64,000 nucleotides of DNA from Alphaproteobacteria bacterium (GCA_964291415.2 OZ219918.1:160001-224000); one strand, 5' to 3'; positions 1-19,062 are shown, counted from the stretch's first letter. A program made the numbers and translations. Notes: generated by a model from the letters alone, not told the origin.

Positions 1-83
1 CAGCCGGCGCGCACCAGGTGCCAGGCGATTGCGCAGCCGACGACACCGCCACCCACAATGACGACACGGGCATGGGACTTCAT
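1..83 (-). CDS. FAD-dependent oxidoreductase, GcvT/dimethylglycine-sarcosine dehydrogenase family (N-terminus only; runs off the window)
   Basis: The reverse complement reads MKSHARVVIVGGGVVGCAIAWHLVRAG, with a GxGxxG dinucleotide-binding motif typical of DMGDH-like proteins. A GAGGAAG RBS lies upstream. Not in the ORF track. Confidence 0.8.
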   Translation of the reverse strand, partial: MKSHARVVIVGGGVVGCAIAWHLVRAG

Positions 84-924: not shown

Positions 925-1385
925 GTGTGGATATGTAGCAGAAAGCGTGCCTCTGCGCAGACGATGCCTCCCGCGTGACGTCTCCGCGTTCCCGCCGGAC
1001 TGGTCCACGTCGACGTGTGCGGGCTGGAAGATGACCTGCAGCAGTCATCGTTCCGCGAGGTGATCGATGAACCGAGTGACCCGCTCCTGCCGTTCCGCTG
1101 TCGGGGAGGTCTGTCAACGGATCATGGACGCGGGGCATGGGCACGGTACGACCGTTGCCGACGTGTGATGTCGCCTGCCAGCCGTGCGAGGACGTCGCTT
1201 TCCGGTCGGCCGGGACGTGTCTCGACACCATTCCGGAAATCTGTGACGGGTATCGTCCGCAGCCTTTGAATTGCGCCTGATCGCAAGCCGAACGTTTCCA
1301 CGACGGGCAGCACATGCTTCTGGCGACACCCCGCGAGCCCGTGCATAGTGACGTTCTCGACCGGAACCGGCACACGGAGGCGCAG

Positions 1386-2378
1386 ATGGCGGACTACAGC
1401 AGCTTGAAGGCGAGATTGCGCGACAGGGAGGTCATCATTCTCGATGGGGCGGTCGGCACCCAGCTCCAGGCGACGGGCGTGCCCATGGACCCCTATTGCT
1501 GGGCGGCAATCGGCAACCACACCCACCCCTCCACGGTGCAGAAGATGCACGAGGACTACATTCGCGCCGGCGCCGACGTGATCACCACGAACACCTATTC
1601 CGCGGCCCGCCACAACTACGAATCGGCGGGTCTCGGCGACCTCGTGATCGAACTGAACATCCGCGCCGTGCAGTTGGCGCAACAGGCGCGGGAACGTGTC
1701 GCCGACCGGCCGGTGTACATCGCCGGCTCGGTTTCGAACTTCGGCGCCTGGAGCGAGTCCGAGTACCAGTGGTTCAGAAAGTCAGCTCCTTCCTCCGGGG
1801 GATCGGGACTGCGGTCACGCAGCCTCATCACGGAGGTGCAGGCACGACGCAATGTGGCCGAGCAGGTGGCCATTCTCGTCGATGCCGGGGTAGACCTTCT
1901 GATCGCGGAAGCGACGGGCAACGAGATCCAGCGCGAGTGGGTTCTGGAAGCGGTCACGGATGCCGGCATACCCTACTGGGCCGGCTTCAAGTGTCACGTC
2001 AACGAGGGAGAGGCGGAGCCCCGCTCCGGCTACATGTCCGATAGCCTGCTTTCCGAGGAGCTGGACGCGCGACTTCCCCTTGATGCCGACGTCCTGTGCA
2101 TCTTCCATTCGACAATCGAGGACACGGACCAGGCCATACCGGTGGTACGCTCGAAGTGGAAAGGCACGCTCGGTGCCTATCCCGAGGCGGGGCGCAAGGA
2201 CTACGTACAGGCATTCGCGGATCGCAACAGCGAGAACCCGCACACGATCGACGAGTGGGTGGCGACCGCCAGGCGATGGACCGACAACGGGGTGCAGGTG
2301 ATCGGTGGCTGTTGCGGCATGGGACTCGATCACATCCGTGCCCTCGATGGGCAACTGCCCCGACGACTGGCTGCCTGA
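1386..2378 (+). CDS. Homocysteine S-methyltransferase family protein
   Basis: Motifs ILDGAVGTQL, HEDYIRAGADVITTNTY and the C-terminal IGGCCG Zn site. GGAGG RBS before the ATG at 1386. Confidence 0.9.
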   Translation: MADYSSLKARLRDREVIILDGAVGTQLQATGVPMDPYCWAAIGNHTHPSTVQKMHEDYIRAGADVITTNTYSAARHNYESAGLGDLVIELNIRAVQLAQQARERVADRPVYIAGSVSNFGAWSESEYQWFRKSAPSSGGSGLRSRSLITEVQARRNVAEQVAILVDAGVDLLIAEATGNEIQREWVLEAVTDAGIPYWAGFKCHVNEGEAEPRSGYMSDSLLSEELDARLPLDADVLCIFHSTIEDTDQAIPVVRSKWKGTLGAYPEAGRKDYVQAFADRNSENPHTIDEWVATARRWTDNGVQVIGGCCGMGLDHIRALDGQLPRRLAA

Positions 2379-2708
2379 ACGACCGCTGCGCTACCACTTG
2401 GCCCGCAGGAGTGATCCGGCCTGGTCCGTTTTCCGTTGCCTGAAGTCCCCGGGAAGCACGGTGTTGCAGGAGTCCCGTTCTGGCCGTCGGGTTCCGGCTG
2501 ATGAGGATCACGTTCCGGTCAGACGCCAACAGGGCATGCTATGCCGATTCCGTCGCCAGGACGGCGCGCTCGAACACTGATGCGTCCGGACAGCCCGAGC
2601 GGATCCGGTGTCAAGCGCCGCCACCGCCGACACGGGCACGGGTCTTCACGGGAGCGCTGCCACGGCAGGATTGCCAGGAGATTGGTGGTGTCGCACCACA
2701 AGGGGGGA

Positions 2709-2885
2709 TCAGGGCGAGGTGCCCCGTCCCTTCATGAACCGGCTGATGAGAAAGGCGGTCCAGGCGATCCACACCACGAGAGCACCCCAGAGATCGACGT
2801 GTGGCTCGATGAATCTCAGCCACAGGAGGACGATCAGAACCAGCCCTGCGATGCTGTAGAACACCATGTCGCCGAACTCCAGCAT
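2709..2885 (-). CDS. Small (58 aa) two-TM membrane protein at the end of the carbohydrate ABC operon
   Basis: MLEFGDMVFYSIAGLVLIVLLWLRFIEPHVDLWGALVVWIAWTAFLISRF. Its ATG overlaps the permease stop (TGATG), suggesting translational coupling. Confidence 0.7.
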   Translation of the reverse strand: MLEFGDMVFYSIAGLVLIVLLWLRFIEPHVDLWGALVVWIAWTAFLISRFMKGRGTSP

Positions 2886-3724
2886 CACTTCACCGCGCCG
2901 AAGGTCAGCCCGCGCGTGAGGTGGCGCTGGATGAACCAGATCATGATGAGCACCGGGATCGACACCACCACCGACGCGGCCGCCAGTTGCCCCCAGTAGG
3001 TGCCGTGCGGTGTGACAAGACCGGGAAACGCTGCAGGCAGGGTCTGCGCACCGGTACCGCCGATCATGAAGGCGAAGAGAAACTCGTTCCATGCGAAAAG
3101 GAAGGAGATCATGGCGGTCACGGCAATTCCCGGGCGCGCCAGTGGCAGAATGATGCGCGTGAAGACCTGCCATTCTCCGGCTCCCTCGGTCAGCGCCGCC
3201 TCGTCGAGTTCGCGTGGTATGTCGTTGAAGAAGTTGCGCATCAGGTAGACGACGAGGGCTAGATTGAACGTGGTCTGGGCGACGGTGACGGCGGTCAGTG
3301 TTCCGAGCAGTCCGATCGACTGGAAGAACATGTAGAGGGGCAGCACGAGTGCGATGCCCGGTGCCATGCGCGTGGTCAGCACGTAGAAGTAGACGTGCTT
3401 TTCGCCATAGACCCGGAACCGCGAGAAGGCATAGGCCGCCGGGAGTCCGAGAACCAGGCACAGCAACGTGCTCGCGCTCGCCGTCACCAGGGAGTTGATG
3501 AGATTGGTCGTGAACGGACCGATGACAAATGCCTCGTGAAAGTTGCTCAGGGTGGGTGAGAACAGGATCTTCGGCACCGGCGACATGACATCGGTACGAT
3601 GCTTGAACGCCGTCACCATGAGCCACAGGAAGGGAGCCAGTGCGGCCGCCGTCACCACCCAAATGACGGCAAGTTCCAGCCGGTCGAGAAGGCGTACTCC
3701 TTTCTTGCGGGTCAGTACGCTCAT
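2885..3724 (-). CDS. Carbohydrate ABC transporter permease (MalG-like)
   Basis: Multiple TM helices, EAA loop (IPRELDEAALTEGA) and FAWNEFLFA. Confidence 0.93.
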   Translation of the reverse strand: MSVLTRKKGVRLLDRLELAVIWVVTAAALAPFLWLMVTAFKHRTDVMSPVPKILFSPTLSNFHEAFVIGPFTTNLINSLVTASASTLLCLVLGLPAAYAFSRFRVYGEKHVYFYVLTTRMAPGIALVLPLYMFFQSIGLLGTLTAVTVAQTTFNLALVVYLMRNFFNDIPRELDEAALTEGAGEWQVFTRIILPLARPGIAVTAMISFLFAWNEFLFAFMIGGTGAQTLPAAFPGLVTPHGTYWGQLAAASVVVSIPVLIMIWFIQRHLTRGLTFGAVK

Positions 3725-4602
3725 GCCTTGCCGCCCGACATGCGGTTGATCAGCTTCATGACCGTGAACGTCATGACGAAGCTGATGAAGAACAGCAGTG
3801 CCACCACGGCCGAGCCATAGCCGAGATTCCAGAACGCGAAATTCACCTTGTAGGCGAAGATGGTGAGGAGCTCCGTGGCCGCACCCGGCCCGCCACCGGT
3901 CATGATGAACACCTGATCGAAGACCTTGAAGGCATCCGTGAGACGCAGCAGGAGAACCACGCCGATGATCGGTTGCAGCATCGGCAGGGTGATCCGCCGG
4001 AACATGTGCCAGCGCGAGGCGCCGTCGACCACCGCGGCCTCATACGGTTCGCGCGGCATGCCGATGATGGCGGCCAGGAAGATCATGGTGACGAAGGGAG
4101 TCCACTGCCAGACATCGACCGCAACGATGGTCAGGAAGGCGTTGAACGGTGTTCCCAGCAACCCCTCGGGCGCGATACCCATTTCCCTCAGCATGATGCC
4201 GAGAAGGCCGAAGTCCGGATTGAGATTGAGACGGGCGACGAGACCGACCACCACGGGCGCCAGGACCATGGGAATCAGCAACAGCGGCATGACGATGCGC
4301 TTCAGCACCATGTGGTAGGAGATCAGCACCGCGAGTGCGAGGCCGGCGACGAATTCCACGGGCAGCGCGATCAGCATGTAGAGCAGCGTCACGCTGACAC
4401 CGTGGAAGAGATCGTCGTCGAAGACCGCCTTGCGGTAGTTGTCGAGACCGATGAACTGACCGTTCTTTCCGGGTTGGGTGTAGCTGAGATGGTGGACGGA
4501 CTGGTCGAGCATGACGAGAAACGGCCACAGTTCGATGATGAGAAGAAAGGCCATCATCGGCACGAGCCACTGCCAGCCACCCCATGATGTCTTGCGTGTC
4601 AT
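3721..4602 (-). CDS. Carbohydrate ABC transporter permease (MalF-like)
   Basis: Motifs FIGLDNY, DVWQWTPF, EAAVVDGA and MTGGGPG. Confidence 0.93.
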   Translation of the reverse strand: MTRKTSWGGWQWLVPMMAFLLIIELWPFLVMLDQSVHHLSYTQPGKNGQFIGLDNYRKAVFDDDLFHGVSVTLLYMLIALPVEFVAGLALAVLISYHMVLKRIVMPLLLIPMVLAPVVVGLVARLNLNPDFGLLGIMLREMGIAPEGLLGTPFNAFLTIVAVDVWQWTPFVTMIFLAAIIGMPREPYEAAVVDGASRWHMFRRITLPMLQPIIGVVLLLRLTDAFKVFDQVFIMTGGGPGAATELLTIFAYKVNFAFWNLGYGSAVVALLFFISFVMTFTVMKLINRMSGGKA

Positions 4603-5708
4603 GCGCGAATTCCCTCGATGGCCCGGCCGGACGACCGGTCGAAGAGCTTCAATTCCTCGAGGTTGACGTCGAAGGAAAGCGTCTCGCCTTCTCGCACTGT
4701 CCGGGGACGCACCATCTTGGCGATGGCCTCGCTGGGGCCGAAGTTCACGAAGAGCAGAGTTTCGCTGCCCAGAGGCTCAACGATGTTGACGACGCTTTCG
4801 AAGACCGCGCCCTCTCGTGGCGGGATACCGTGGCCTTGGGGGGAGATGTCGTCTGCCCGCAGACCGATCACGACTTCGTGGCCCGTTTCCACATGCGCCG
4901 CCAGGTGCCCGGGAACCGGCAACTGCCAGTCTGAATCCACCCGGAGGATCCTGCCGTCGTCGGTGTCGGCGACGACGCCGTCGAACATGTTCATGGGCGG
5001 TGATCCGATGAACCTGGCAACGAAGGTGTTGGCCGGATAGTGGAAGATGTCGTCCGGGGCGCCGATCTGCTCGACCTTGCCGGCACGCATGATGACGACG
5101 CGGTCGGCCAGCGTCATGGCCTCGACCTGATCGTGGGTGACGTAGACCACCGTGGTCTCCACCTTCCTGTGCAGGCGCTTGATCTCGGTGCGCATCTGGG
5201 TGCGCAACTGGGCGTCGAGGTTGGAGAGCGGCTCGTCGAACAGGAACACGTCCGGATGACGAACGATGGCCCGTCCCATGGCAACACGCTGACGCTCGCC
5301 GCCGGAAAGTTGGGCCGGCTGACGGTCGAGAAGTTCGTCAAGACCGAGAATGTCGGCGGCTTCCGCCACCTTGAGATCGATCTCCCGGCGCGGCACGCGC
5401 GCGAGTGTCAGACCGAATGCCAGGTTCTCCCGCACGGACATGTGGGGATAGAGAGCGTAGTTCTGGAATACCATGGCCACGTTGCGCATGCGCGGCGGTT
5501 CGTCGTTCACCACCCTGTCGCCTATGTGGATGCTGCCGCTCGAGATTTCCTCCAGTCCGGCAATCATGCGCAGGGTGGTCGACTTGCCGCACCCCGAAGG
5601 TCCGACGAGAACGACAAACTCGTTGTGATCGATCTCGAGATCGATCTCGCGGACGGCGACCACGTCACCGTAGACCTTCGAAACGTTCTCAAGCAGCACC
5701 TTCGCCAT
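4599..5708 (-). CDS. Carbohydrate ABC transporter ATP-binding subunit (MalK/UgpC-like)
   Basis: Walker A GPSGCGKST, signature LSGGERQR, Walker B FLFDEPLSNLD and a C-terminal TOBE region. Confidence 0.95.
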   Translation of the reverse strand: MAKVLLENVSKVYGDVVAVREIDLEIDHNEFVVLVGPSGCGKSTTLRMIAGLEEISSGSIHIGDRVVNDEPPRMRNVAMVFQNYALYPHMSVRENLAFGLTLARVPRREIDLKVAEAADILGLDELLDRQPAQLSGGERQRVAMGRAIVRHPDVFLFDEPLSNLDAQLRTQMRTEIKRLHRKVETTVVYVTHDQVEAMTLADRVVIMRAGKVEQIGAPDDIFHYPANTFVARFIGSPPMNMFDGVVADTDDGRILRVDSDWQLPVPGHLAAHVETGHEVVIGLRADDISPQGHGIPPREGAVFESVVNIVEPLGSETLLFVNFGPSEAIAKMVRPRTVREGETLSFDVNLEELKLFDRSSGRAIEGIRA

Positions 5709-5729
5709 GGCGATTCTCCCGGTGAAGCG

Positions 5730-6410
5730 TCAGCCACCGGCCCCCCTGCATGCATCGAGGACGTCACGGAGTTGCGATGTCAGCGCCCCCTTGCGTGGCG
5801 AGAATGCGCCCTCGAGTGCTGCCGTGCCAATGGTGAATGCATCGCCTCCGGCCTCGGCCACTGCCAGGATACGCTCCGAAGAGTCGATGCTGCCGGCGAC
5901 CACGACCTCGCCCGGAGTGCCCGCGCGGGCGGCCCGCACCAGGTCGAGGGGGTCGCACTCGGTAGCGCGATAGGCGAGGAGATCGACACCGGCACATCCC
6001 ATGTCGGCGAAGCGTCGGCAGTCCTCCTCGATCATTCTGGCAGTTCCGCCAAGTCTCGTGGGATGTCCTTCCGGACGGCCGGGGAACGGCAGGTAAGCGA
6101 TGCCGCTGCCGTCAAGTATCTCCAGAGTGTCTTCGACATCGGTGCCGCCGAGCAGGCGGTCCACACCGAGCGCCCGCGCTGTTCTCGCCGATTCGAGCGA
6201 GGCCTCACGTGAGGTGCTGACCACCTCCATGTAGCTGATCGCGCCGGATTCCCTGATGGACCGGTTGAGTGTTTCCAGAGTGGTCTTGTCGACCCCGACA
6301 TCCTTGAATCCCACGTGACCAAGACCGAGGTCGCGGATACCGTCGAAGACATCGAGGCAATCGACGATGGTCTGGTCGTGCCGGGTGAGCATGAAGATGA
6401 AATCGATCAT
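5730..6410 (-). CDS. Uncharacterised TIM-barrel protein with a probable phosphate-binding C-terminus
   Basis: MIDFIFMLTRHD...GFKDVG...YMEVVS...GVDLLAYR...VVAGSIDS...FTIGTA. Alternating beta/alpha pattern ending in motifs like the ribulose-phosphate-binding barrel. Start set at MIDFIF. Confidence 0.7.
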   Translation of the reverse strand: MIDFIFMLTRHDQTIVDCLDVFDGIRDLGLGHVGFKDVGVDKTTLETLNRSIRESGAISYMEVVSTSREASLESARTARALGVDRLLGGTDVEDTLEILDGSGIAYLPFPGRPEGHPTRLGGTARMIEEDCRRFADMGCAGVDLLAYRATECDPLDLVRAARAGTPGEVVVAGSIDSSERILAVAEAGGDAFTIGTAALEGAFSPRKGALTSQLRDVLDACRGAGG

Positions 6411-6548
6411 GACGGTGTCGGTCCTACTCCGGACCGGCAACTTGCCAGACACATCATCGATATGGCAACCGCCACGGCCGCTGTTCTATTGGTGAAAATG
6501 GCCAATTCCGCTATGGTCCGTCCGATTGCGATGACCGAAGAAGAGGTG

Positions 6549-8816
6549 ATGATGCAGGGGACGTCCGGCAACCGGTGGAAGCGCTACGATGTGTGGGACG
6601 ACAGGCCGCTGAGGTACGACCGCTTCACGCCGGACAGTCCCGAGGACGGCTTCTGTGCCACCAACAGCCCCACCGATCCGAAGCCGTCCCTCGTGGTGAG
6701 GGACGGCCGTGTCGTCGAGATGGATGGCGTGGCGGAAGGAGCGTTCGACATGATCGATACCTTCATCGCCCGCCACCATATCGACCCGGAAGTCGCCGGC
6801 GAGGCGATGGCGATCGACAGCGGGGATTTCGCGAGACGTCTTGTCGATGTCAACGTGGCAAGGGACGAACTGGTGCGGCTGGCCCGCGGGATGACGCCGG
6901 CCAAGCTGTGCGATGTCCTCGACAGCATGAACACCCTGGAACTTTCCTTTGCCCAGGCCAAGCTGCGGACCCGCAGGATGCCCGGCAACCAGGCCCACGT
7001 TACCAACGCCAAGGACGACCCGGTTCAGCTCGCGGCGGACGCCGCCACCGCGGCTGCCATGGGGTTCGATGAGATCGAGACCACCATGCGCGTGGCGCGC
7101 AATTCGTGGTCCAACGCCCTTGCCTGCCTCATCGGTGCGGCGGTCGGAAAGCCGGGTACGCTGTTCCAGTGTGCCTGCGAGGAAGCCGAGGAGCTCAAGC
7201 TGGGCATGGCCGGCCTGACATCCTATGCCGAGACGGTCTCCGTCTATGGGACTGAGGGATCGTTCGTCGACGGCGACGACACGCCTTGGTCGAAGGCCTT
7301 CCTGATTGCCGCCTATACATCGCGCGGCATCAAGGCGCGGTGTACTTCCGGCGGCGGCGCGGAACTGCTCATGGGATTTCACGACACGCGCTCGCTGCTT
7401 TATCTCGAGGCCCGCTGCCTGTGTGTGCAGCGGGCAATCGGTGTCCAGGGAACCCAGAACGGTGGCATCGATGGTGCTCCGGTCACCGGGTCGATGACAG
7501 GTGGCATGCGCGAGATCCTGGCGGAGAACGTGCTCGCCGCACTGCTCGATCTCGAGTGCGCGTCGGGCAACGACACACGGATCAGTGAATCGGAAATCCG
7601 GGTCGGCGCCAAGATCATGCCCCATCTCATGTCGGGAACGGACTTCCTGTGTTCCGGGTTCGGGTCCATCCCGGCCTATGACAACTCCTTTGCGGCCTCC
7701 CTGTTCAATGCCGAGGAGATCGAGGATTTCCTTGCCGTACAGCGTGACTTCGAACTCGACGGCGGCATCCATCACGTCCCCGAGGGTCATGTCATGGCCC
7801 TGCGCCGGCGTGCCGTCGATGCTCTCGACGCCGTTTTTCGCGACCTTGGTCTCGGTGATGTTGGTGAGGCGCAGAAGACCAGTGTGGTCCAGGCGAGTGG
7901 TTCACGTGACACTGACACCTTCCGGCTGAGCGAGATTGGTGTCATCTCGGAGACGATCGCCCGAAAGGGCATCACGCTTCTCGACATCATCGCCGCCCTG
8001 GGACGCACCGGTTTTGTTGATGTGGCCGAGAATCTTCTGCTCTTGCTGCGCTACCGGGTGAGCGGCGACTACCTGCAGACGGCGGCGGTTATTCGTGACG
8101 GACGCGTGGTCAGTGCCGTCACCCACCCCAACGACTACAGCGGCCCCGGAACCGGGCACCGGCTGACCGCCGAGCGCCGCGACGAGATCGCCGGCATCCG
8201 CAGTCTTCTCACGAAACGGGAGATCTTCGAGTCGGCGGAACGCCACGAGGCGAGAGAGAGGCGTCGGTATCACCTGCAAGCGATCGGGCCCGCCGCTGGC
8301 GGCACGTCCCGGGACGAGGTGGTCATTGCCGTCAGTCCGGCCTTCGGCCGCAAGCTGCATCAAACAACCTCGGGCCTGTACCTGTCCGACGTGATGGAGG
8401 CGCTGCTCACCGGTGTTCAGGAAGGCGGTGGCAGGGCGCGGGTCGTGCGGGCGTGGCACACGGCCGACACATCGTTTCTCGGTCTTACCGCGGCACGCCT
8501 TTCCGCTTCGGGGATCGGGATCGGAATCCAGGCCAAGGGGACCGCGGTCATCCACACTGCTGACGACTATCCTCATATGAACCTGGAGCTTTTCTCCCAG
8601 GCACCGATCACCGGACTCGGGCACTACCGGCGTATGGGCCACAACGCGGCCTGCTATGCTCGCGGCGAACGTCCGGAACCGGTCAGCATCCCCTACAAGG
8701 GGGAGGCCCTTGGTGCCCGCTTTCATGTGCAGACATCGCTCATCTATGCGCTGGAAACGGCCATGGTGAAGGCGGACGCAGAACCGGAGGAGCTGAGGGT
8801 GACGTTCCATGAATGA
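6549..8816 (+). CDS. pduCD: Adenosylcobalamin-dependent diol/glycerol dehydratase, large (alpha) and medium (beta) subunits fused
   Basis: Alpha motifs QAHVTN, GFDEIETT, YAETVSVYGT, DGDDTPWSK, LYLEARC and NDYSGPGTG run in frame into beta motifs DEVVIAVSPAFG, GIGIGIQAKGT and NLELFSQAP. AAGAGG RBS before ATG 6549/6552. Confidence 0.92.
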   Translation: MMQGTSGNRWKRYDVWDDRPLRYDRFTPDSPEDGFCATNSPTDPKPSLVVRDGRVVEMDGVAEGAFDMIDTFIARHHIDPEVAGEAMAIDSGDFARRLVDVNVARDELVRLARGMTPAKLCDVLDSMNTLELSFAQAKLRTRRMPGNQAHVTNAKDDPVQLAADAATAAAMGFDEIETTMRVARNSWSNALACLIGAAVGKPGTLFQCACEEAEELKLGMAGLTSYAETVSVYGTEGSFVDGDDTPWSKAFLIAAYTSRGIKARCTSGGGAELLMGFHDTRSLLYLEARCLCVQRAIGVQGTQNGGIDGAPVTGSMTGGMREILAENVLAALLDLECASGNDTRISESEIRVGAKIMPHLMSGTDFLCSGFGSIPAYDNSFAASLFNAEEIEDFLAVQRDFELDGGIHHVPEGHVMALRRRAVDALDAVFRDLGLGDVGEAQKTSVVQASGSRDTDTFRLSEIGVISETIARKGITLLDIIAALGRTGFVDVAENLLLLLRYRVSGDYLQTAAVIRDGRVVSAVTHPNDYSGPGTGHRLTAERRDEIAGIRSLLTKREIFESAERHEARERRRYHLQAIGPAAGGTSRDEVVIAVSPAFGRKLHQTTSGLYLSDVMEALLTGVQEGGGRARVVRAWHTADTSFLGLTAARLSASGIGIGIQAKGTAVIHTADDYPHMNLELFSQAPITGLGHYRRMGHNAACYARGERPEPVSIPYKGEALGARFHVQTSLIYALETAMVKADAEPEELRVTFHE

Positions 8817-9219
8817 GGGAGGCCGGTCAGACGAAAAACCGGCAGGGGTGCTTGCGACAACGGGTGGTCGGCCTCTTGAAGAACTGACACTCGCCAACGT
8901 GCTCGCCGGTACGGTGGATGAGAGTGATGTGGGCATCCGCCCCGCCGTGCTTCGCCACCAGGGCACCGTCGCCCGCGGTGCCGGCCGCGACCGGCTGGCG
9001 GACAATTTCGAGCGAGGCGCCGAGCTTGTCGGTGTCCCCGACGAAGAGATCTTCGCCACCTACGAGAAGTTGCGCCCGGGGCGGGCGCGGAGCCGGGCGG
9101 AACTGATCGAACTCGCCCGTCATTACCGGCAGACCTACGGAGCACATCGCATCGCCGAACTGATCGAGAGCGCGGCCGAGGTGTACGAACGCCGCCGTCT
9201 CTTCCAGAAGAGGTTCTGA
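8809..9219 (+). CDS. pduE: Diol dehydratase small (gamma) subunit
   Basis: Motifs GRPLEELTLANVL, LADNFERGAEL..VPDEEIFATYEKLRPGR, YGA and AAEVYERRRL. Overlaps the upstream stop. Confidence 0.9.
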   Translation: MNEGGRSDEKPAGVLATTGGRPLEELTLANVLAGTVDESDVGIRPAVLRHQGTVARGAGRDRLADNFERGAELVGVPDEEIFATYEKLRPGRARSRAELIELARHYRQTYGAHRIAELIESAAEVYERRRLFQKRF

Positions 9220-9221
9220 TC

Positions 9222-9998
9222 ATGATTCTCGACGACAGGATCGCCGTCGTCACGGCGGCAGGTTCCGGTATAGGCCGGGCCGGCGCCGAGGCCATGGCCG
9301 CCGAGGGAGCCTTCGTCATCGCCACGGATCTCGTCGCCGAGCGGGCCGCCGGAACTGCTGAGCGCATTCAAAAAGCCGGTGGCGCGGCGACCTCTCTCGC
9401 CGTCGATGCGGGTGATGACGAGGCCCTCGCATTGCTCATGAACCAGGTGGCGGCCGACCATGGCCGCATCGATATCCTTCACAGCCACGCCGGTATCCAG
9501 ATCGAGGGAGGTGTCGGCGACCTTATTGCGGCCGACCTCGACCGCTCCTACCGGTACAATGTGCATGCGCACTACGTCGCGGTGACATGCGCCCTGCCGC
9601 ACATGCAGGATGCTGGTGGCTCGATCCTCTTGACCTCATCCAACGCCGGTGTGTTCCCGGACTACGGCATGACCGGTTACATCACCACCAAGGCTGCCGT
9701 GGTCATGATGGCGGAACAGATGGCGCTTGACCTCGCGCCGCACGGAATTCGCGTGAATGCGCTGTGTCCGGGCTGGATCGACACGCCGTTCAACGACGCA
9801 TACCAGCGCCAGCTCGGCGGCAGGGAGGCGCTCGAGGAGGTTGTTGCCACGCGCGTGCCGCTGGGCCGCTTCGGAACGGTTGGGGAGATTGCCGACGCCA
9901 TTGTCTTTCTCGTTTCCGACCGTTCTTCCTACATCACCGGACACGCCCTCATCGTCGATGGCGGCGAGCGTCTCGTCGGTCCCGGACCTCGCAGCTGA
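9222..9998 (+). CDS. Short-chain dehydrogenase/reductase
   Basis: Motifs VTAAGSGIG, catalytic YITTK, RVNALCPG and ITGHALIVDGG. Confidence 0.92.
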   Translation: MILDDRIAVVTAAGSGIGRAGAEAMAAEGAFVIATDLVAERAAGTAERIQKAGGAATSLAVDAGDDEALALLMNQVAADHGRIDILHSHAGIQIEGGVGDLIAADLDRSYRYNVHAHYVAVTCALPHMQDAGGSILLTSSNAGVFPDYGMTGYITTKAAVVMMAEQMALDLAPHGIRVNALCPGWIDTPFNDAYQRQLGGREALEEVVATRVPLGRFGTVGEIADAIVFLVSDRSSYITGHALIVDGGERLVGPGPRS

Positions 9999-10099
9999 AG
10001 GCAACGGCCTCCGGGCACGTCATCAAGTCGCCGGCCGGCGTAGACGTCAGGGACTCGCGGGACATTCGCCAACGTCGAGGTCGGCAGGCGCGATGCGCG

Positions 10100-11191
10100 T
10101 CATGGTCCTGGATCAAGGCGTCGGAATGCGGTTGAGAGAGCATCCGGGTTGGCGACATGGAGGGGTGGCGCGCCTGTCAGCAGGCGCGCCAGACCATCGG
10201 CCAGCATGGCCGCCGTGCGCGCCGGAACATCACTCGAAATGCCGGCAACGTGGGGTGTGAGGAGAAGCCGGTCCGGGGTCACATCGAACAGTGGGCTGTC
10301 CGGCGGCAGCGGCTCATCGGGATAGACATCGATCAGGGCGCCAGCGATCCGGTCATCGCCCAGTGCTGCCAGGAGTGCATCGTAGTCAAGAGCCGTTGCC
10401 CGTGCGGTATTGACAAGCCAGGGGCGCTTCGCCATGGCGGCGAACTCGCTCTTGCCCAGCAAAGGCCGGCTTCCACCGGCAAGGCGCGCGTGAATGGAGA
10501 CGATGGTGCTTTCGGCAAGAAGGCGGTCCAGTGGTACTGCTTCGGCTCCGGCTGCCGCCAGGCTGGCCGGGTCGACGAAGGGGTCCGTCGCCATCACCCG
10601 GGCGCCGAAGGCCCGGGCGAGACGGGCCACCAGACAGCCGATCCGGCCGGCGCCGACGAGGCCCAGCGTCTGCCGGGACAATTCCGGGCCACTCGGTTTC
10701 TCGAAGGTGTCCTCCAGCGGTGTTGTCCATGACCCCTGGCGCACCCAGTCCAGCGCCAGGGGGATCCTGCGCATGAGGTTGATCATGCCGGCAATGACGA
10801 ATTCGGCGACAGCTTCCTCGTTGCGACCAGGAGCATGGAGCACCGGGATCCCGCGTTCGCTGGCGGCGGCAAGGTTGATGTTGATCGGACCGCCCCTGCC
10901 ACAACAGATGGCAACAAGCCGGGGCGCTTGGTCGATCAGGTCGGCCGTCACCGGCGCGAAAGTGGTGACAAGAAACTGGCAGTCGGCGACATGACGCGCG
11001 ATCTCGTCGACATCGCCGAACGCCTCGGACACCTCGCCGGAGCGGTATGCCGTGACGTCGTTGCTCTCGATGTCGATGCAGCGAAACGAAACGGATATCC
11101 CGTCAGCTGCGAGTCGGTTGCCGAGGACACGCTCGAAAAGCGCTGCCGGGGTGAAATCGTCGCCCAGAACGAGACACGTCCATTCCGTCAT
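10100..11191 (-). CDS. D-2-hydroxyacid dehydrogenase family protein
   Basis: Motifs GRNEEAVAE, LVGAGRIG, VNTAR, DVYPDEP and LTPHVAG. Start MTEWT overlaps the kinase stop. Confidence 0.9.
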   Translation of the reverse strand: MTEWTCLVLGDDFTPAALFERVLGNRLAADGISVSFRCIDIESNDVTAYRSGEVSEAFGDVDEIARHVADCQFLVTTFAPVTADLIDQAPRLVAICCGRGGPININLAAASERGIPVLHAPGRNEEAVAEFVIAGMINLMRRIPLALDWVRQGSWTTPLEDTFEKPSGPELSRQTLGLVGAGRIGCLVARLARAFGARVMATDPFVDPASLAAAGAEAVPLDRLLAESTIVSIHARLAGGSRPLLGKSEFAAMAKRPWLVNTARATALDYDALLAALGDDRIAGALIDVYPDEPLPPDSPLFDVTPDRLLLTPHVAGISSDVPARTAAMLADGLARLLTGAPPLHVANPDALSTAFRRLDPGP

Positions 11192-12663
11192 TTTCTGACC
11201 TCGAGACAGAGTTCCACGGCCCGGCACCACGCCTGGTAACGATCCTCCCGGCACGACCGCATGGCTTCCTGCGGTTCGAAGTGGGTGTCATCCTCAGGTG
11301 ATTCCGTCGCGTCCCCGGCCCACAGGCCGGCACCGACTCCTGCCATGCGGGCGACGCCGTAGGCCGTGAGTTCAGGGCGTGCGGACCGGATGACGGGGCG
11401 CGCGAGAATGTCGGCCTGCAGCTGGAGGAAGTGGTCACTTCGTGCCAGACCGCCATCCACGCGAACGGTGCCGTCGGTCTTCATGTCGTCGAGGACGCGC
11501 TTTACCTGGAAGCAGATGGCCTCAAGAGCAGCCAGGCAGACGTCGCTGTCATCGCTCGAGGCATCGAGGCCCATCACGGCGGCGCGGGCCCGTGGATCCC
11601 ACCAGGGTGACGCCAGTCCCTGGAAGGCAGGGACGAGCATGACGCCCGACGTCGTGTCGGCGCCTTGAGCCCGCTCGATGACCTCGCCGGCGTCGCCGCA
11701 CAACCTGAGGCGGTTGACGAGCCAGTCGAGGATGGCGCCGGCATACATCACGAATCCCTCAAGCGCATAGGTTGGCCGGTCGAGATGCCAGGCAATGGTC
11801 TCGAGACCTCCTGCCACAGCCGAAGACCGGCGCTCGTGGCCACCGTTCATCCACACGAATGCTCCGGTGCCGTACGTGCTCTTCACGGCGCCTTCATTCA
11901 GACAGCCATGACCGAACAGGGAAGCCTGCTGGTCACCCATGGCGGCTGTCAGAGGGACCTCCGCGCCGAAGTGCCTCGTCGCGCATGTTCCCATCATGCA
12001 TCCAGAAGGGACCACCCGCGGCATGGCGCCGGGGTCGATGTCGAAGAGCGCGAGGAGATCGCTGTCCCATGCCAGTGAGCCGATGTTGAAGAGCATGGTG
12101 CGGGAGGCATTGCTGTAGTCGGTGGCATGAAGGGCGCCATCGCTCAGGCGCCACAGGAGCCAGCTGTCAACCGTGCCCCACAACACCTCTCCACGTGCCA
12201 GCGCCCTTGCGATCTCCGGCTCGTGTCGCATGACCCAGCGCAACTTGGTTGCGGTGAAGGTCGGATCGAGATCAAGCCCGGTCCTGTCACGAATGAACCG
12301 GCGGTTGTCCGGTGTGTCGATATCCGCCGTGACACCGGTGCTGCGGCGACATTGCCAGACGATCACAGGATGAACGGGACGGCCGGTGTCCCGTTCCCAC
12401 AGCACCAGGGATTCGGTGTGATTGTCGATGCCCAACCCGGCGATGGCCGAGGCCGGAACAGTGGTGATGTCGAGAAGTTCCCGGGCGCAGTCAAGAACGT
12501 TCGCCACCATGGCTTCGGCATCCTGCTCCACCAGACCGGGCGCCGGATGGGTTGCCGGCAATGCCCTTGTGGTCTGCGCAAGTATGCTCCCCTTGTCATC
12601 GAGCAGGACAGCCTTGGTTCCGGAGGTACCCTGATCGATACCGATCACGTGATCCCGGGTCAT
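11188..12663 (-). CDS. FGGY-family carbohydrate kinase (glycerol kinase-like)
   Basis: Motifs IGIDQGTSGTK, IVWQCRR, TDYSNASRTML, GDQQASLFG, KSTYGTG and RVDGG. Confidence 0.92.
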   Translation of the reverse strand: MTRDHVIGIDQGTSGTKAVLLDDKGSILAQTTRALPATHPAPGLVEQDAEAMVANVLDCARELLDITTVPASAIAGLGIDNHTESLVLWERDTGRPVHPVIVWQCRRSTGVTADIDTPDNRRFIRDRTGLDLDPTFTATKLRWVMRHEPEIARALARGEVLWGTVDSWLLWRLSDGALHATDYSNASRTMLFNIGSLAWDSDLLALFDIDPGAMPRVVPSGCMMGTCATRHFGAEVPLTAAMGDQQASLFGHGCLNEGAVKSTYGTGAFVWMNGGHERRSSAVAGGLETIAWHLDRPTYALEGFVMYAGAILDWLVNRLRLCGDAGEVIERAQGADTTSGVMLVPAFQGLASPWWDPRARAAVMGLDASSDDSDVCLAALEAICFQVKRVLDDMKTDGTVRVDGGLARSDHFLQLQADILARPVIRSARPELTAYGVARMAGVGAGLWAGDATESPEDDTHFEPQEAMRSCREDRYQAWCRAVELCLEVRK

Positions 12664-12672
12664 TGATACTGA

Positions 12673-12718
12673 CAGGCCGGCTCCCGAACCCGTTGCGAAG
12701 GGTCCGGGAGCCGGCCTG
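12673..12718. terminator. Strong GC-rich stem-loop between the SBP and kinase genes (mRNA stabiliser or attenuator)
   Basis: CAGGCCGGCTCCCG...CGGGAGCCGGCCTG forms a perfect 14-bp inverted repeat immediately after the SBP stop. There is no clear U-tract. Confidence 0.65.
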
Positions 12719-12726
12719 ATATCACT

Positions 12727-14247
12727 TTACTGGTACTCGGCGAGTGCCGGAATCTCGGCGTAGATCTCCTCGACCGCGGCATCAAGGCCCTCCTTGGGCT
12801 CCATCTGCCCTGCCAGGACAGCACTCAGATGCTTCATGAGGATCTCTTCGAGAGTGGCGTACTCGGGGAAGTTCTCCAGCTTGAAAATCACCGGTTGTGT
12901 TTCGCCCGTCACCGGGTCGACGGCATCGACGTAACTCGCCGGAACTCCATCGGCCGCGCCGCTGCTGCGCAGGGCCGGCTGCCCGTCATACTCGGGAACT
13001 CGGCCGCTCAGCATGTAGTGGTTGGTGGCGGCATAATCGAGTGCCCTCACGAACTCCTCGTGATAGGCCGATTCGGTGAGCGAGATACTGCCCGTCGACA
13101 TCAGCTTCGCCTGCACGTCTGGCCGCTGAGTCCACTGCAGGAAGAGAGCGGCCGCTTCCGGATTCTTCGAGCTTGTCGGTATGAACATGCCCCACTGGTG
13201 CAGGTTGACGATCTTGCGGGCACCGATGGGTGTGCCGCTGAACGCGATTCTGCCGGCGACAGTCGACTGCTCTTCGTCGTGCGCCATGGCATATGACGCA
13301 TCGGCCCACAACAGGGTCTGGGCAGCGATGCCGCTCTGGATGGCGGCGAGCTGCTCGTCCCAAGTGTAGGTCAGCGATCCGGGCGGGCATGTCTCAAGCA
13401 GCAGGTCCCTGTAGAAGGTCAGGGCCTCGACGCCCTTCTCGTTGTTGATCACAACGGGTCCGTACTCGGGGCCTGAGGCACTGTCGATGACGAGACCATC
13501 GTAAGCATAGAGAATGTTGTAGAAGTTATAGAGCATCGAGACATGGCGCTTGCCCGAAAGGGTGAGGCCGTAGAAGGGCTGCTCCAGGGTCTCGCCGGCC
13601 AGCATGTCACCCGATTCACGGGTGAAGAACATTGCCGTGTCGCGAAGCTCGTCGAGCGTGACGGGCGGTGAGGGAAGGTCATAACCGTACTCTTCCTTGA
13701 ATGCAGCCTGCTCATCGGGGTGCTCAAACACGTCATAGCGCCAGTTGAGATAGATCGTGTGCGCCGAGAAAGGCACACCGTAGAGCGTACCTTCGTGGGC
13801 CAGTGACGCGTTGAGCCAGTCCTGGCTCAGCACCTGGTCGACCACGGCGAATTCCGGATCGGCAAGGGCCGGATCGTTGAGATAGGTTTCCAGAGGCAGA
13901 GCCCAGCCGTTGACCACGAGAGTCGGCACCCGCATCAGAGGGTTGAGCACCGCGTCATAGAAACCGGTGCCGCCAATGAAATCGGCCGACGTCTTCTGGA
14001 TGACCTGGTCGAAGGCATGCTGTTCGACCTCGACCATGATGCCTGTCTCCGCTTCGAAGGCCGCCTTCTGCTGGTCCAGGGACTCGAGAGGGGGAAGGGC
14101 TTCCCCGATGACGCGAATGGTCACCCCTTCGTAGGGCTTTGCGGCCTCGCTGAGAGACCACTCTTCTGCCGACGCACCGGATAGCACCACACTGCCGCCG
14201 GCCACCATCGCGGCAAGCAGCAGACTACGGGAACGGGTTCTGATCAT
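12727..14247 (-). CDS. Carbohydrate ABC transporter solute-binding protein
   Basis: Signal peptide, then AAKPYEGVTI, FEAETGI, YGVPF, WRYDVF and a C-terminal EPKEGLD, typical of sugar-binding proteins. Confidence 0.9.
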   Translation of the reverse strand: MIRTRSRSLLLAAMVAGGSVVLSGASAEEWSLSEAAKPYEGVTIRVIGEALPPLESLDQQKAAFEAETGIMVEVEQHAFDQVIQKTSADFIGGTGFYDAVLNPLMRVPTLVVNGWALPLETYLNDPALADPEFAVVDQVLSQDWLNASLAHEGTLYGVPFSAHTIYLNWRYDVFEHPDEQAAFKEEYGYDLPSPPVTLDELRDTAMFFTRESGDMLAGETLEQPFYGLTLSGKRHVSMLYNFYNILYAYDGLVIDSASGPEYGPVVINNEKGVEALTFYRDLLLETCPPGSLTYTWDEQLAAIQSGIAAQTLLWADASYAMAHDEEQSTVAGRIAFSGTPIGARKIVNLHQWGMFIPTSSKNPEAAALFLQWTQRPDVQAKLMSTGSISLTESAYHEEFVRALDYAATNHYMLSGRVPEYDGQPALRSSGAADGVPASYVDAVDPVTGETQPVIFKLENFPEYATLEEILMKHLSAVLAGQMEPKEGLDAAVEEIYAEIPALAEYQ

Positions 14248-14487
14248 GTTGTACTCCTCGTTGACAGTCTTCTGATTGAACGGCCCTCACCGACAACCGG
14301 ACCGGCTTCCGGCAAGCCATTGCGGGCACTATGCCGGTTCTCCGGAACCAAGTCACCCTGCGGTGCGCCGGGCCGGCAATGCCGGAAAGTCTTCGCCGAA
14401 CCCTTCAGTCCACTGGACCTCCTCCTGCGGCCCGGCGGAACCGATGAGGATGGGACGGGGCGGGGACGACCAGGGCGGTCGCGCCGG

Positions 14488-15228
14488 TCATCCGGCTGGT
14501 TGTGATGCTGCCGGAACATACGACACGGCGTCGGCGAGCGTGTCCACGAGGCGGGCGCGGCTGGCCTCGTGCCGGTCGTGCGGCGAGAAAGGCGGAACGA
14601 TGTCATCGTATTCCGCCATGGCGTCGCGGATCTCGCGGGCTTCTGCCGGCGAATAGGAGGTTCTCGTCCCGTCGTGCGTGAGCCGTTTCAGACGTTCGAC
14701 GGCGACAGTCTTGCGGGCAATGTTCCGGATGTCCCAGGAATCATGGACACAGATGCCCCATGTCCCGGCACGCCAGTTGGTCCAGACATAGGTTTCGAAG
14801 TGGTGGTCGAAGCCCGCCCTGTCGATGGCGCCGTCTTCAGCCATGAAGCCCCCGTAGGTGATGGCGGCGGCGCCATGGCGAACGAGGCCGTCGAGGAATC
14901 CGGTGCGAAGCTCCTCCCTGAGTACCGGAGCGAGGTGCCGGGGAGACGTTCCTTCGAGGCGAGGCGCGATCGACAGGACCCAGGTGATGACGTCCGCCGC
15001 GAAATGGCGGGAGACGGTCTTCAGCGACACCGTGTCGGCGTCGCCGTTGATGTGGGCCCATAACTCCTCGCGCTGGCGACGCTCGTAGCTGGCGCCCGGC
15101 ATGCATCCGGTGGCAATCAGGTCCTCAAGACGGTCGTCTGCCAGTCCTGTCCTCTCCGCGATGTCCTGAAGCGACACGTAGCGCTCTTCGAGATAGGATT
15201 CGAGTTCGTCGGTGGTCCAGTTCGCCAT
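14488..15228 (-). CDS. DUF6058-like protein
   Basis: N-terminal YLEERY...L....MPGASY, GTWGICV and C-terminal PFSPHDRHEASRARLV resemble DUF6058 as recalled. Confidence 0.6.
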   Translation of the reverse strand: MANWTTDELESYLEERYVSLQDIAERTGLADDRLEDLIATGCMPGASYERRQREELWAHINGDADTVSLKTVSRHFAADVITWVLSIAPRLEGTSPRHLAPVLREELRTGFLDGLVRHGAAAITYGGFMAEDGAIDRAGFDHHFETYVWTNWRAGTWGICVHDSWDIRNIARKTVAVERLKRLTHDGTRTSYSPAEAREIRDAMAEYDDIVPPFSPHDRHEASRARLVDTLADAVSYVPAASQPAG

Positions 15229-15275
15229 CTCAATCTCAGGTGGTCTGACATGTACATTTTATGTGACAATAAAGT

Positions 15276-15971
15276 ATGAATGTCAAGACATCGATGGTGA
15301 ACGTCGGGTCGATGATCGGCTCTCCGATCCGGGCAACGATGCTTGGAGCCCTCCTTGGCGGGCGGGCATTGACGGCAACCGAGCTTGCGCGCCTGGCGTC
15401 AGCATCGCCGGCTTCGGCAAGCCAGCACCTCGCGAAGCTGGTTGCAGCGGGACTTCTGGCTGTCGAGAGGCACGGGCGACATCGCTACTACAGCATGGCT
15501 TCCACCGACATCGCTGCGGCGCTCTCCGCGCTCGAAAGCCTCGGTGCGCCTCTTCCCAGGCCTCCGGTGCCTGAAAAATCCGACGCAATTCGAGAGGCGC
15601 GTCTGTGCTATGACCATGTGGCTGGCGGACTCGGTGTCGGCATCACCGACGCCTTGCTTTCGAACGGCTGGCTCGAATCAACGGGCCGCGACTATTGGCT
15701 GACAAAACCGGGTGAGATGTTCATGCAGCGCCTCGGGGTCGACGTCGATGGCGCCCGGGCGAAGCGCCGCCTCTTTGCCCGCGCATGCCTTGACTGGAGC
15801 GAACGCCGCCCGCACCTGGCAGGAGCCCTCGGCGCCGGTCTCGCCGCCCGGCTGTTCGAACTGGACTGGCTGGAACGTTCCGGACGCCCGCGCGAGATCC
15901 GCGTGACAGCCGGAGGCGAAGTGGAGTTGGTCCGCCTCTTCGGCATGACGCCCGCGACAAGGGACGAGTGA
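15276..15971 (+). CDS. ArsR/SmtB family transcriptional regulator
   Basis: HTH TATELARLA...ASQHLAKL, GRHRYY, ARLCYDHVAG and CLDWSERRPHLAGALG. Confidence 0.9.
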   Translation: MNVKTSMVNVGSMIGSPIRATMLGALLGGRALTATELARLASASPASASQHLAKLVAAGLLAVERHGRHRYYSMASTDIAAALSALESLGAPLPRPPVPEKSDAIREARLCYDHVAGGLGVGITDALLSNGWLESTGRDYWLTKPGEMFMQRLGVDVDGARAKRRLFARACLDWSERRPHLAGALGAGLAARLFELDWLERSGRPREIRVTAGGEVELVRLFGMTPATRDE

Positions 15972-16076
15972 CCGCCGACGCCTCAAACGCCTGTTCGAAA
16001 GCGGCGGGGCCTGTGCCATGGTATGAGGAGCGTCGCGGCGAAACCCTCCCACTGGAAACAGGACCCGGATCGAACG

Positions 16077-17264: not shown

Positions 17265-17289
17265 TGACGAAGAACCGGGAGATTCAACG

Positions 17290-18261: not shown

Positions 18262-18276
18262 CATGACGAGGACAAC

Positions 18277-19059: not shown

Positions 19060-19062
19060 CGC

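Follow-up and report, generated by a model that had tools for sequence, protein, structure and literature searches.

A fused diol dehydratase with an altered substrate pocket inside a sugar-type ABC importer cluster of an alphaproteobacterium

Diol dehydratase is a textbook B12 radical enzyme, whose known physiological substrates are C2-C3 diols and which is thought to need a reactivase because of self-inactivation. A 64,000-nucleotide stretch of an alphaproteobacterial genome (GCA_964291415.2, OZ219918.1:160001-224000) raises the question of what an enzyme of this family does when it is encoded within a sugar-type ATP-binding cassette (ABC) importer cluster. The whole stretch is referred to here as the window, and positions are counted from its first letter. 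On the sequence evidence, we put at about even the chance that the cluster acts as a single unit in the breakdown of an imported, polyol-like solute that exceeds glycerol in size or polarity, and this solute would probably be a C4-C6 sugar alcohol or a close derivative.

The cluster spans positions 2885-14247 and is organized in three transcription units. A leftward unit runs from a TIM-barrel protein of 226 amino acids (aa) through a MalK/UgpC-type ATPase to two permeases. The rightward unit, divergent from it, encodes the fused dehydratase, its small subunit, and a short-chain dehydrogenase/reductase (SDR), and the third unit, convergent on the dehydratase unit, encodes a binding protein, an FGGY kinase, and a D-2-hydroxyacid dehydrogenase. 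This layout places the dehydratase-SDR operon between both halves of one CUT1 importer. Each gene type named in a preliminary description of the sequence was found (Pfam and NCBIfam searches); the left edge given there, 2709, belongs to an overlapping open reading frame (ORF) without a family (2709-3662), and the cluster itself begins at 2885. Its features are as follows.

2885..3724, minus strand: ABC permease 2 (MalG/UgpE-like); PF00528, 8.2e-20; best NCBIfam matches GlcU and MalG, all below cut-off
3721..4602, minus strand: ABC permease 1 (UgpA/MalF-like); PF00528, 1.8e-15
4599..5708, minus strand: ABC ATPase of the MalK/UgpC type; PF00005 plus OB_MalK; NF008653 (UgpC subfamily), 479 bits against a cut-off of 432
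5730..6410, minus strand: TIM-barrel protein, 226 aa, of an unnamed family, first gene of the ATPase-permease operon; no Pfam or NCBIfam match
6411..6551, no strand: divergent intergenic region between the TIM-barrel/ABC operon and the dehydratase operon; read directly
6552..8816, plus strand: fused alpha-beta (large plus medium) AdoCbl (adenosylcobalamin) diol/glycerol dehydratase with an Asp302/Thr337 pocket; PF02286 (2.3e-213) and PF02288 (2.4e-24) in one frame
8809..9219, plus strand: gamma (small) subunit; PF02287, 4.7e-35
9222..9998, plus strand: SDR oxidoreductase, glucose-1-dehydrogenase/BudC-like, third gene of the dehydratase operon; PF13561, 3.4e-54; NF005559, 204 bits against 215
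10100..11254, minus strand: D-isomer 2-hydroxyacid dehydrogenase, similar to phosphoglycerate dehydrogenase (PGDH), start uncertain; PF02826 (3.8e-46) plus PF00389
11188..12663, minus strand: GlpK-subfamily FGGY kinase with an altered substrate site; TIGR01311, 491 bits against a cut-off of 590
12727..14247, minus strand: periplasmic solute-binding protein (CUT1, 506 aa); PF01547, 1.5e-24; signal peptide

No regulator gene lies within the cluster, and no riboswitch or other Rfam RNA family was detected in the intergenic region 6411..6551, elsewhere in the cluster, or near it. The source genome is a 4.44-Mb alphaproteobacterial bin, rated 100% complete with 8.99% contamination, and it encodes one dehydratase only. 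Across this whole genome, the shell family PF00936 had zero matches, the reactivase large-subunit family PF08841 reached at best a sub-threshold 20.8 bits, and PF13941, which represents GlmL/MutL-type chaperones as an alternative reactivase, had no match. The sole MIP channel of the genome sits on another contig (C4), outside the cluster, and a PduO-type adenosyltransferase is encoded elsewhere. Pfam searches of window positions 1-20000 found none of the propanediol or 1,3-propanediol dehydrogenase, aldehyde dehydrogenase, shell, and MIP families. The absence of a facilitator, a reactivase, and a shell from the cluster, on which the preliminary description had built, thus holds, and for shell genes and for a reactivase above the cut-off it extends to the entire genome. 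The cluster appears to be accessory, because its dehydratase, barrel, and binding protein are all missing from two same-genus genomes (G033 and G210; 2.8 Mb). The bins that hold the nearest related loci (94% identity) have a 4.1-Mb chromosome. With these sizes in view, the genus assignment or the purity of the window's bin may be questionable.

Architecture and substrate pocket of the dehydratase

The dehydratase ORF opens at 6315 (6315-8816, plus strand), and its true start lies at about 6534-6555. A tandem ATG ATG stands at 6552, immediately preceded by GAAGAGG, and conservation in two related loci (L003 and L004) starts near residue 76-80 of the long ORF; together these features point to a protein of ~754 aa. 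The gamma gene overlaps the alpha-beta stop by 8 bases. The alpha-beta polypeptide is ~49% identical to Klebsiella DhaB1+2, and its large-subunit part scores 799 bits with NF011979 (propanediol/glycerol family, NCBIfam; cut-off of 788). The medium-subunit part reaches 183 bits against an NCBIfam cut-off of 248, and the small subunit reaches at best 129 bits against 196, all models falling below.

To read the pocket, the window protein was aligned with the chains of solved Klebsiella glycerol dehydratases and then with a natural DhaB1 from a Klebsiella plasmid (glycerol dehydratase numbering is used throughout), and the metal-ligand and catalytic residues were taken from the list in a review, as far as its available text goes (PMC7674605). 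The metal ligands Q142, E171, E222, Q297, and S363 are retained, as are the catalytic H144 and D336, together with T223 and F375. The radical 1,2-shift chemistry is thus expected to be the same as in PduCDE and DhaB123, since the metal ligands and the catalytic His and Asp are identical. Four pocket positions are changed relative to Klebsiella DhaB1 (i.e., S302D, C303G, Q337T, and M374S). According to the available text of the same review, Ser301 and Gln336 of diol dehydratase (302 and 337 here) touch the 3-OH of glycerol, the S301A and Q336A enzymes are inactivated more slowly with glycerol, and a listed reference (Yamanishi 2012) names in its title a redesigned enzyme acting on longer-chain 1,2-diols (PMC7674605). 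By alignment, both residues that contact the substrate 3-OH are replaced in the window dehydratase; C303G and M374S may also shape the pocket, their spatial role being putative.

Pocket types, reactivase, and gene context among relatives

A search for related loci yielded 78, of which 61 had a single tblastn segment spanning residues 150-700 and were tabulated; the other 17, lacking such a segment, were left out of the pocket table. The metal ligands and the catalytic H144 and D336 are identical in the window and in 61/61 tabulated loci. The pocket residues divide these loci into two groups. D302, G303, and S374 occur in all 44 loci of at least 60% identity, which belong to Alphaproteobacteria and a few bins with other labels; position 337 varies within these 44, which comprise 12 loci with Thr, 31 with Ala, and 1 with Ser (Thr and Ala are referred to below as the D/T and D/A types). 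Ser302, Cys303, and Met374 are retained in 17/17 loci of a clade at ~45% identity, which is also fused and includes members from Propionibacteriaceae, Acidobacteriota, and others; position 337 in these S-type loci is Gln in 12 and Ala in 5. A quick maximum-likelihood tree separated the D302 clade from the S-type with an SH-aLRT value of 100, the sole support measure; in this tree, the D/T sequences formed a basal grade and the D/A sequences a derived clade, and sugar-type contexts appeared on several deep D/T branches.

The pocket type is accompanied by a difference in reactivase content. PF08841 was found in 5/5 S-type genomes tested (>510 bits) versus 0/5 other D-type genomes. In 3 S-type genomes that allowed comparison, the reactivase lies on the contig of the dehydratase, 3-14 kb away. 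Fusion alone does not account for the missing reactivase, because the fused S-type genomes carry one; in these genome searches, the missing reactivase goes with the pocket type and not with fusion alone.

Two related loci carry further genes of note. Within 6 kb of the D/T dehydratase of L006, there are genes for a GlmL/MutL-type protein (L006:17319-18719; PF13941, 8.7e-133) and a CbiX-domain protein (L006:8885-9667). GlmL-type proteins are chaperones of another B12 enzyme, and by analogy the L006 protein could be an alternative reactivase in some lineages. In L046, a second dehydratase copy upstream of the intact one (L046:1435-3721) consists of two ORFs with PF02286 fragments only and is probably a decayed duplicate.

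The gene context also follows the pocket type. Counts from tblastn and Pfam searches of the loci, which exclude the window itself, are as follows.

D/T (12 loci): MalK-type ATPase 9, CUT1 solute-binding protein 9, FGGY kinase 8, TIM barrel 7, APH kinase 0 (tblastn query), class-III aminotransferase 3, amino-acid permease 0, isochorismatase-like 0
D/A (31 loci): MalK-type ATPase 0, CUT1 solute-binding protein 0, FGGY kinase 0, TIM barrel 0, APH kinase 16, class-III aminotransferase 15, amino-acid permease 14, isochorismatase-like 22
S-type (17 loci): all eight families 0

Despite the tblastn count of 0, Pfam revealed an APH-family gene in the D/T locus L006. The kinases and barrels of the D/T loci are of mixed origin: the eight kinases comprise four GlpK-like and four XylB-like proteins, the two types being 24-29% identical, and the seven barrels comprise four of the window's family and three BtpA/SgcQ proteins. 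A relationship between the window's barrel family and BtpA/SgcQ was considered and rejected (hhalign probability of 0.85%). On these sequence comparisons, an importer-kinase-barrel architecture recurs with non-orthologous parts around D/T dehydratases.

Two cultured strains, Agrobacterium cucumeris (O132, plasmid pO132a) and Shinella zoogloeoides, have plasmid-borne D/T dehydratases inside a carbohydrate ABC operon. In both, genes for a permease, a binding protein, and a second permease precede those for the fused dehydratase and its small subunit; a UgpC-type ATPase, an SDR annotated as 'glucose 1-dehydrogenase', a phosphotransferase, a class-III aminotransferase, and GntR follow in this order. 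Of all observations, this placement of the dehydratase within an ABC operon speaks most strongly for a joint function of importer and dehydratase. Full synteny with the window cluster is seen in L007 and L043 (94% dehydratase identity), L003 (86%), and L004 (83%). In L004, the block of binding protein, kinase, and dehydrogenase is inverted and still adjoins the dehydratase operon. Scanning the candidate ORFs in the gaps of L003 and L004 turned up a GNAT acetyltransferase for L004 and no other family in either locus.

The D/A loci (e.g., L010 [8296-9744 and 16100-17116], L028, L046, and L021) hold Hyphomicrobium/Methyloceanibacter-type dehydratases with D302 and A337. Kinases of the APH family, class-III aminotransferases, amino-acid permeases, isochorismatase-like hydrolases, and SDRs are encoded around them, in many cases together with an AMP-ligase. 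The set looks like a second undescribed pathway, probably one for an amino-alcohol or amino-diol.

Partner proteins, proposed route, and competing explanations

All parts of a CUT1 importer are encoded: the binding protein belongs to SBP_bac_1 and carries a signal peptide, both permeases have the BPD_transp_1 domain, and the ATPase is of the MalK type and includes an OB domain. Permease 1 overlaps both neighbors by 4 bases each and is therefore probably cotranslated with them. Among the four syntenic loci (L003, L004, L007, and L043), permease 2 is 91-96% identical to that of the window and the binding protein 88-97%. A strong ortholog of the binding protein was found in 2 of 401 sampled alphaproteobacterial genomes (the window's and G084), both of which have the dehydratase; the dehydratase itself occurs in just 7 of the 401. 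The nearest solved chains of the binding protein are 5iai (1.9e-24) and 4rya, whose title names sorbitol. The 5iai structure holds ribitol, according to the available text of PMC8468352.

The kinase is nearest to glycerol kinases (1.1e-111), and its substrate site is altered. Compared with E. coli GlpK, it carries R83T and Y135T and retains E84, W103, D245, and F270; we take these six positions to be the glycerol-binding residues of the E. coli GlpK structure. Both Thr changes are shared by the four syntenic orthologs and by the G084 ortholog (49% identical). Judged by this alignment, the kinase has lost two glycerol-binding residues, and it falls below the GlpK equivalog cut-off (491 versus 590 bits). 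A canonical GlpK with the Arg and Tyr retained is encoded elsewhere in the genome (C2:837657-839117; 615.6 bits).

The SDR gene starts 3 bases past the gamma stop, and homologs of 52-59% identity flank D-type dehydratases in L021 (about 10 kb from the dehydratase), L031, L033, L039, L046, and L051. No solved relative of the SDR was found at an E value of 1e-40 or lower. The best solved relative of the 2-hydroxyacid dehydrogenase is the phosphoglycerate dehydrogenase 1wwk (3.8e-43), and only generic PGDH-like chains were matched; its ORF shares 67 bases with that of the kinase, and residue 79 is the first one covered by the Pfam match.

The TIM-barrel ORF extends over 5730-6452 (minus strand), and all 23 aligned homologs begin at a MIDFIF start, which places the true start at 6410 and gives a protein of 226 aa. 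The invariant residues are K36, D37, E62, H116, D143, and R148. Of 8000 candidates scored, 5638 were homologs at an E value of 0.001 or lower, some of them labeled 'related to proFAR isomerase'. The AlphaFold2 model (pLDDT of 94.4) gave only generic barrel matches in a Foldseek search against the PDB (TM of about 0.65), and no specific family was singled out. In a wide search, the best structural match was 3-hexulose-6-phosphate synthase (9lj9, Z of 20.6; 3ajx, Z of 18.6), a top rank that is not clearly apart, since many other barrels lie within 2-3 Z units at 10-18% identity. The next matches were thiamin-phosphate synthase, 2-keto-3-deoxy-6-phosphogluconate aldolase, ribulose-phosphate epimerase, and related phosphate-binding barrels. 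Members of the orotidine-monophosphate-decarboxylase suprafamily (e.g., 3-hexulose-6-phosphate synthase and 3-keto-L-gulonate-6-phosphate decarboxylase) are (beta/alpha)8 phosphate-binding barrels with a conserved Asp/Lys motif at strand 3. The nearest homologs of the window's barrel occur together with genes for DeoR, glycerol-1-phosphate-dehydrogenase-like proteins, XylB-like FGGY kinases, GlpD (538 bits), and ABC components. The barrel probably handles a small phosphorylated polyol or ketose, and within the window's cluster it is probably an extra component, not one that goes with the dehydratase everywhere. Distant members of the family (43-48% identical) with a C-terminal cupin domain were found at L125:9359-10354, L126:9308-10363, and L127:9333-10547; the L127 gene adjoins one for a PdxA-family dehydrogenase, which hints at four-carbon acid-sugar phosphates.

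From these parts, the following route can be proposed. The CUT1 system, all component genes of which are present, would import the solute. The fused AdoCbl dehydratase, with its catalytic and metal residues intact, would act on the terminal vicinal diol of the free solute by hydrogen abstraction, a 1,2-hydroxyl shift, and loss of water, yielding a deoxy-aldehyde. The widened pocket, with an added Asp and small residues in place of Ser, Cys, Gln, and Met, should admit and hydrogen-bond the remaining chain, and the same changes may make a reactivase dispensable, because Ala at two of these positions lowers suicide inactivation. The cotranslated SDR would convert the aldehyde or its lactol, the GlpK-like kinase would phosphorylate the remaining glycerol-like end, and the 2-hydroxyacid dehydrogenase and the phosphate-binding TIM barrel would carry the phosphorylated intermediate to central metabolites. 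What the sequence shows directly is which genes are present, that the catalytic machinery is intact, and which residues are changed; from this we infer the substrate and the order of steps.

Several observations weigh against the cluster being a catabolic unit for a larger polyol. Full synteny is confined to the four close relatives, with dehydratase identities of 83-94%, and one of these (L003) is without an SDR match. In G084, the importer-kinase module (permease, binding protein, and kinase on a 6.1-kb contig) and the D/T dehydratase, which stands in an amine-type context, are on different contigs. The binding protein resembles polyol binders only weakly (89 bits). The TIM-barrel family is common, being present in 19 of 301 sampled genomes including the window's, and none of 20 other loci with this family contains a dehydratase; given its GlpD, DeoR, and FGGY neighbors, the barrel may belong to a glycerol-phosphate-type module. 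Finally, many D-type loci, including the plasmid operons, have an APH-family kinase and a class-III aminotransferase, and these contexts suggest that much of the clade uses nitrogen-containing substrates. The conserved linkage foreseen in the preliminary description is borne out for the ABC genes, which recur with 9 of the 12 D/T dehydratases, and not for the kinase and the barrel, which are replaced elsewhere by XylB-like FGGY and BtpA/SgcQ proteins; the separation of the barrel family from dehydratases in the 20 other loci and the separate contigs of G084 also count against it.

An amino-diol or amino-polyol is the main alternative substrate, since Asp302 and much of the clade context point to nitrogen compounds. 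Asp302 would then pair with an ammonium group, and the resulting amino-aldehyde would be converted by the SDR and later enzymes. The acidic residue gained in the pocket, the frequency of APH kinases, class-III aminotransferases, amino-acid permeases, and isochorismatase-like genes at the 31 D/A loci, the amine oxidase and arginase-family genes at the D/T loci L006 and L012 (the latter also with a PotD-like importer), the phosphotransferase and aminotransferase near the end of the Agrobacterium and Shinella operons, and the richness of the rest of the window in amine-catabolic genes all fit this proposal. However, neither an APH kinase nor a class-III aminotransferase occurs in the cluster or among 60 scanned ORFs of the 64-kb window, and the dehydratase is instead accompanied by a 2-hydroxyacid dehydrogenase, a phosphate-binding barrel, and a kinase similar to GlpK; moreover, the nearest solved relatives of the binding protein bind neutral polyols, and an Asp is equally able to hydrogen-bond hydroxyl groups. 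We regard a nitrogenous substrate for the window's enzyme as a serious minority possibility. It is rather unlikely that the kinase acts before the dehydratase, so that the free diol end of a polyol phosphate is dehydrated (e.g., pentitol 5-phosphate to 2-deoxypentose 5-phosphate) and the barrel performs an aldolase-like cleavage. A kinase and a phosphate-binding barrel do accompany D/T dehydratases in two nonhomologous versions (GlpK-like with the unnamed barrel, and XylB-like with BtpA/SgcQ), and the best structural matches of the barrel are sugar-phosphate enzymes, aldolases included. However, the dehydratase is cotranslated with the SDR rather than with the kinase, and the pocket changes introduce an Asp and small neutral side chains but nothing basic, which makes a phosphate ester less likely as the substrate. 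The barrel presumably also lacks a Schiff-base lysine at what we take to be its position in deoxyribose-phosphate aldolase.

Similarly improbable is an ordinary glycerol or 1,2-propanediol dehydratase of an aerobe, in which ABC-imported glycerol would be split between kinase and dehydratase, and the fusion and the loss of the reactivase would be lineage quirks. The large subunit passes the propanediol/glycerol cut-off, if only just, no catalytic residue is lost, the closest matches of the kinase are glycerol kinases, the TIM-barrel family usually neighbors glycerol-phosphate genes, and surveys, in their available text, call fused enzymes of this kind glycerol dehydratases (PMC4777399 and PMC7674605). 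Against this, both 3-OH contact residues are replaced across the clade, R83 and Y135 are lost in the window kinase and in 5/5 orthologs while a canonical GlpK is encoded elsewhere, the cluster lacks a 1,3-propanediol dehydrogenase and an aldehyde dehydrogenase, and the medium and small subunits score well under the family cut-offs. The pocket and kinase changes and the separate GlpK thus disfavor a plain glycerol route. Least probable is that a dehydratase-SDR pair and a separate sugar-alcohol importer/kinase cluster are unrelated neighbors, as might be suggested by the barrel's independence of the dehydratase, the two contigs of G084, and the limited synteny. The dehydratase operon lies between the importer halves and keeps this position in L004 despite the inversion, ABC genes accompany 9/12 other D/T loci versus 0/48 other loci, and the dehydratase is inside an ABC operon on two plasmids; the recurrence and the plasmid operons argue against chance adjacency. 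The suggestion in the preliminary description that a larger, actively imported substrate is used, in a pathway unlike propanediol or glycerol fermentation, is favored by three independent lines of sequence evidence, namely the 3-OH contacts, the kinase residues, and the recurrence of D/T dehydratases with ABC genes in distant lineages; of the substrates it had listed, the phosphate is the least favored.

Known systems, surroundings of the cluster, and significance

PduCDE of Klebsiella oxytoca and Salmonella and DhaB123 of Klebsiella pneumoniae share with the window enzyme the same three Pfam domains, the metal ligands, and the catalytic His and Asp. They differ in that alpha and beta form one polypeptide in the window, and in the four substituted pocket positions. 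In contrast to the pdu and dha systems, the window's genome is without a reactivase or shell, and its cluster is without a facilitator, a propanediol or 1,3-propanediol dehydrogenase, and a coenzyme A-acylating aldehyde dehydrogenase; a Klebsiella plasmid dha locus, for comparison, contains gldA, DhaR, an adenosyltransferase, 1,3-propanediol dehydrogenase, and the reactivase alpha subunit. The fused S/Q-type enzymes of Propionibacteriaceae, Acidobacteriota, and Sporomusa (L048-L066 and L076) are also alpha-beta fusions, 42-51% identical to that of the window, but they have the canonical Ser, Cys, and Met, with Gln at position 337 (Ala in 5), and a reactivase in the five genomes tested.

Polyol loci for erythritol and threitol, found via their binding proteins, combine an FGGY kinase with a DeoR regulator and a GlpD-like dehydrogenase. 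They share with the window an importer of the CUT1 type, dehydrogenases, and a TIM-barrel enzyme as well as the FGGY kinase, and the other loci of the window's TIM-barrel family resemble such gene sets. No such polyol locus is known to use a B12 radical dehydratase, and our literature search found no paper linking a diol dehydratase to polyol-binding-protein loci.

Fused 'glycerol dehydratases' have been reported in surveys of Mesorhizobium, Mycobacterium, and Hyphomicrobium, aerobic hosts in which no reactivase was found (Liu et al. 2010, via PMC7674605; PMC4777399), and the active site of the fused enzymes has been called 'slightly different' (PMC4777399). As far as the available text of these sources goes, the surveyed enzymes share with the window the alpha-beta fusion plus gamma, the lack of a reactivase, and the aerobic hosts, and neither PMC4777399 nor PMC7674605 gives a substrate, a gene-context analysis, or a residue list. 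The fusion and the missing reactivase are thus already in print. The Hyphomicrobium loci analyzed here are of the D/A type, unlike the window's D/T type, and papers on M. smegmatis only list three such paralogs. Our literature search, which did not cover supplementary files or Liu et al. 2010, returned no characterized substrate for the fused clade; within the same limits (the uncovered sources may list residues), neither the D/T-D/A pocket signature nor its links to the reactivase and to importer or amine contexts were found.

On the right of the cluster, genes for a DUF6058 protein (14488-15228, minus strand) and an ArsR-family regulator (15276-15971, plus strand) separate it from an MFS transporter and a Zn-dependent dehydrogenase. 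In L003, which is without the DUF6058 and ArsR genes, the transporter and dehydrogenase stand about 0.7 kb past the cluster, and for this reason they may be loosely associated with it. Farther along, an amine-type gene stretch (21486-29648 and 34848-42354) encodes a Rieske oxygenase, an Oxidored_FMN plus Pyr_redox_2 protein (similar to trimethylamine/histamine dehydrogenase), a PotD-like binding protein, a LuxR regulator, and GcvT, followed by a glutamate-synthase-like trio (GATase_6; GXGXG plus Glu_synthase; Fer4_20 plus Pyr_redox_2) that resembles N-methylglutamate synthase genes, and then an ammonium transporter. Positions 30151-33824 encode a 561-aa protein without a Pfam family and then a 663-aa AAA_15/AAA_21 ATPase, with a start/stop overlap of 4 bases; the pair looks like a two-gene defense-type module. 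A thiamine pyrophosphate (TPP) riboswitch (45239-45345, plus strand; 77.3 bits against a gathering score of 54.3) is directly followed by genes for a binding protein, a fused double permease, and an ATPase (45393-48698), i.e., a thiamine-type ABC importer controlled by the riboswitch.

Near-identical pieces of the cluster (0-2 mismatches) are present in a sponge metagenome run (X4), and the cluster may therefore concern a host- or alga-derived polyol. In a sponge metatranscriptome library (X13), three contigs match 8652-8848, 13379-13593, and 13892-14130 with 0-1 mismatches; they are a weak hint of expression only, because DNA can be present in such libraries, and most of the cluster had no cover there, which was not used as evidence. 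Deep cover of 5031-5804 in all four runs was attributed to conserved ABC ATPase sequence of other organisms and was left unused.

More broadly, and tentatively, the D302 clade may be a reactivase-independent AdoCbl family of aerobes that has abandoned C2-C3 diols and dehydrates ABC-imported larger polyols or amino-polyols to deoxy-aldoses, which would enter previously unknown deoxy-sugar routes; the window would be one version of these, equipped with a kinase of its own derived from GlpK and with a new TIM-barrel enzyme that binds phosphate. A natural clade, with no reactivase and tied to sugar-type importers, has replaced exactly those pocket residues whose mutation lowers inactivation and admits longer diols. 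The two cultured strains, A. cucumeris O132 and S. zoogloeoides, make the D/T idea directly testable. If true, it would widen the substrate range of B12 radical dehydration and would represent a natural answer to suicide inactivation, which limits glycerol dehydratase in biotechnology.

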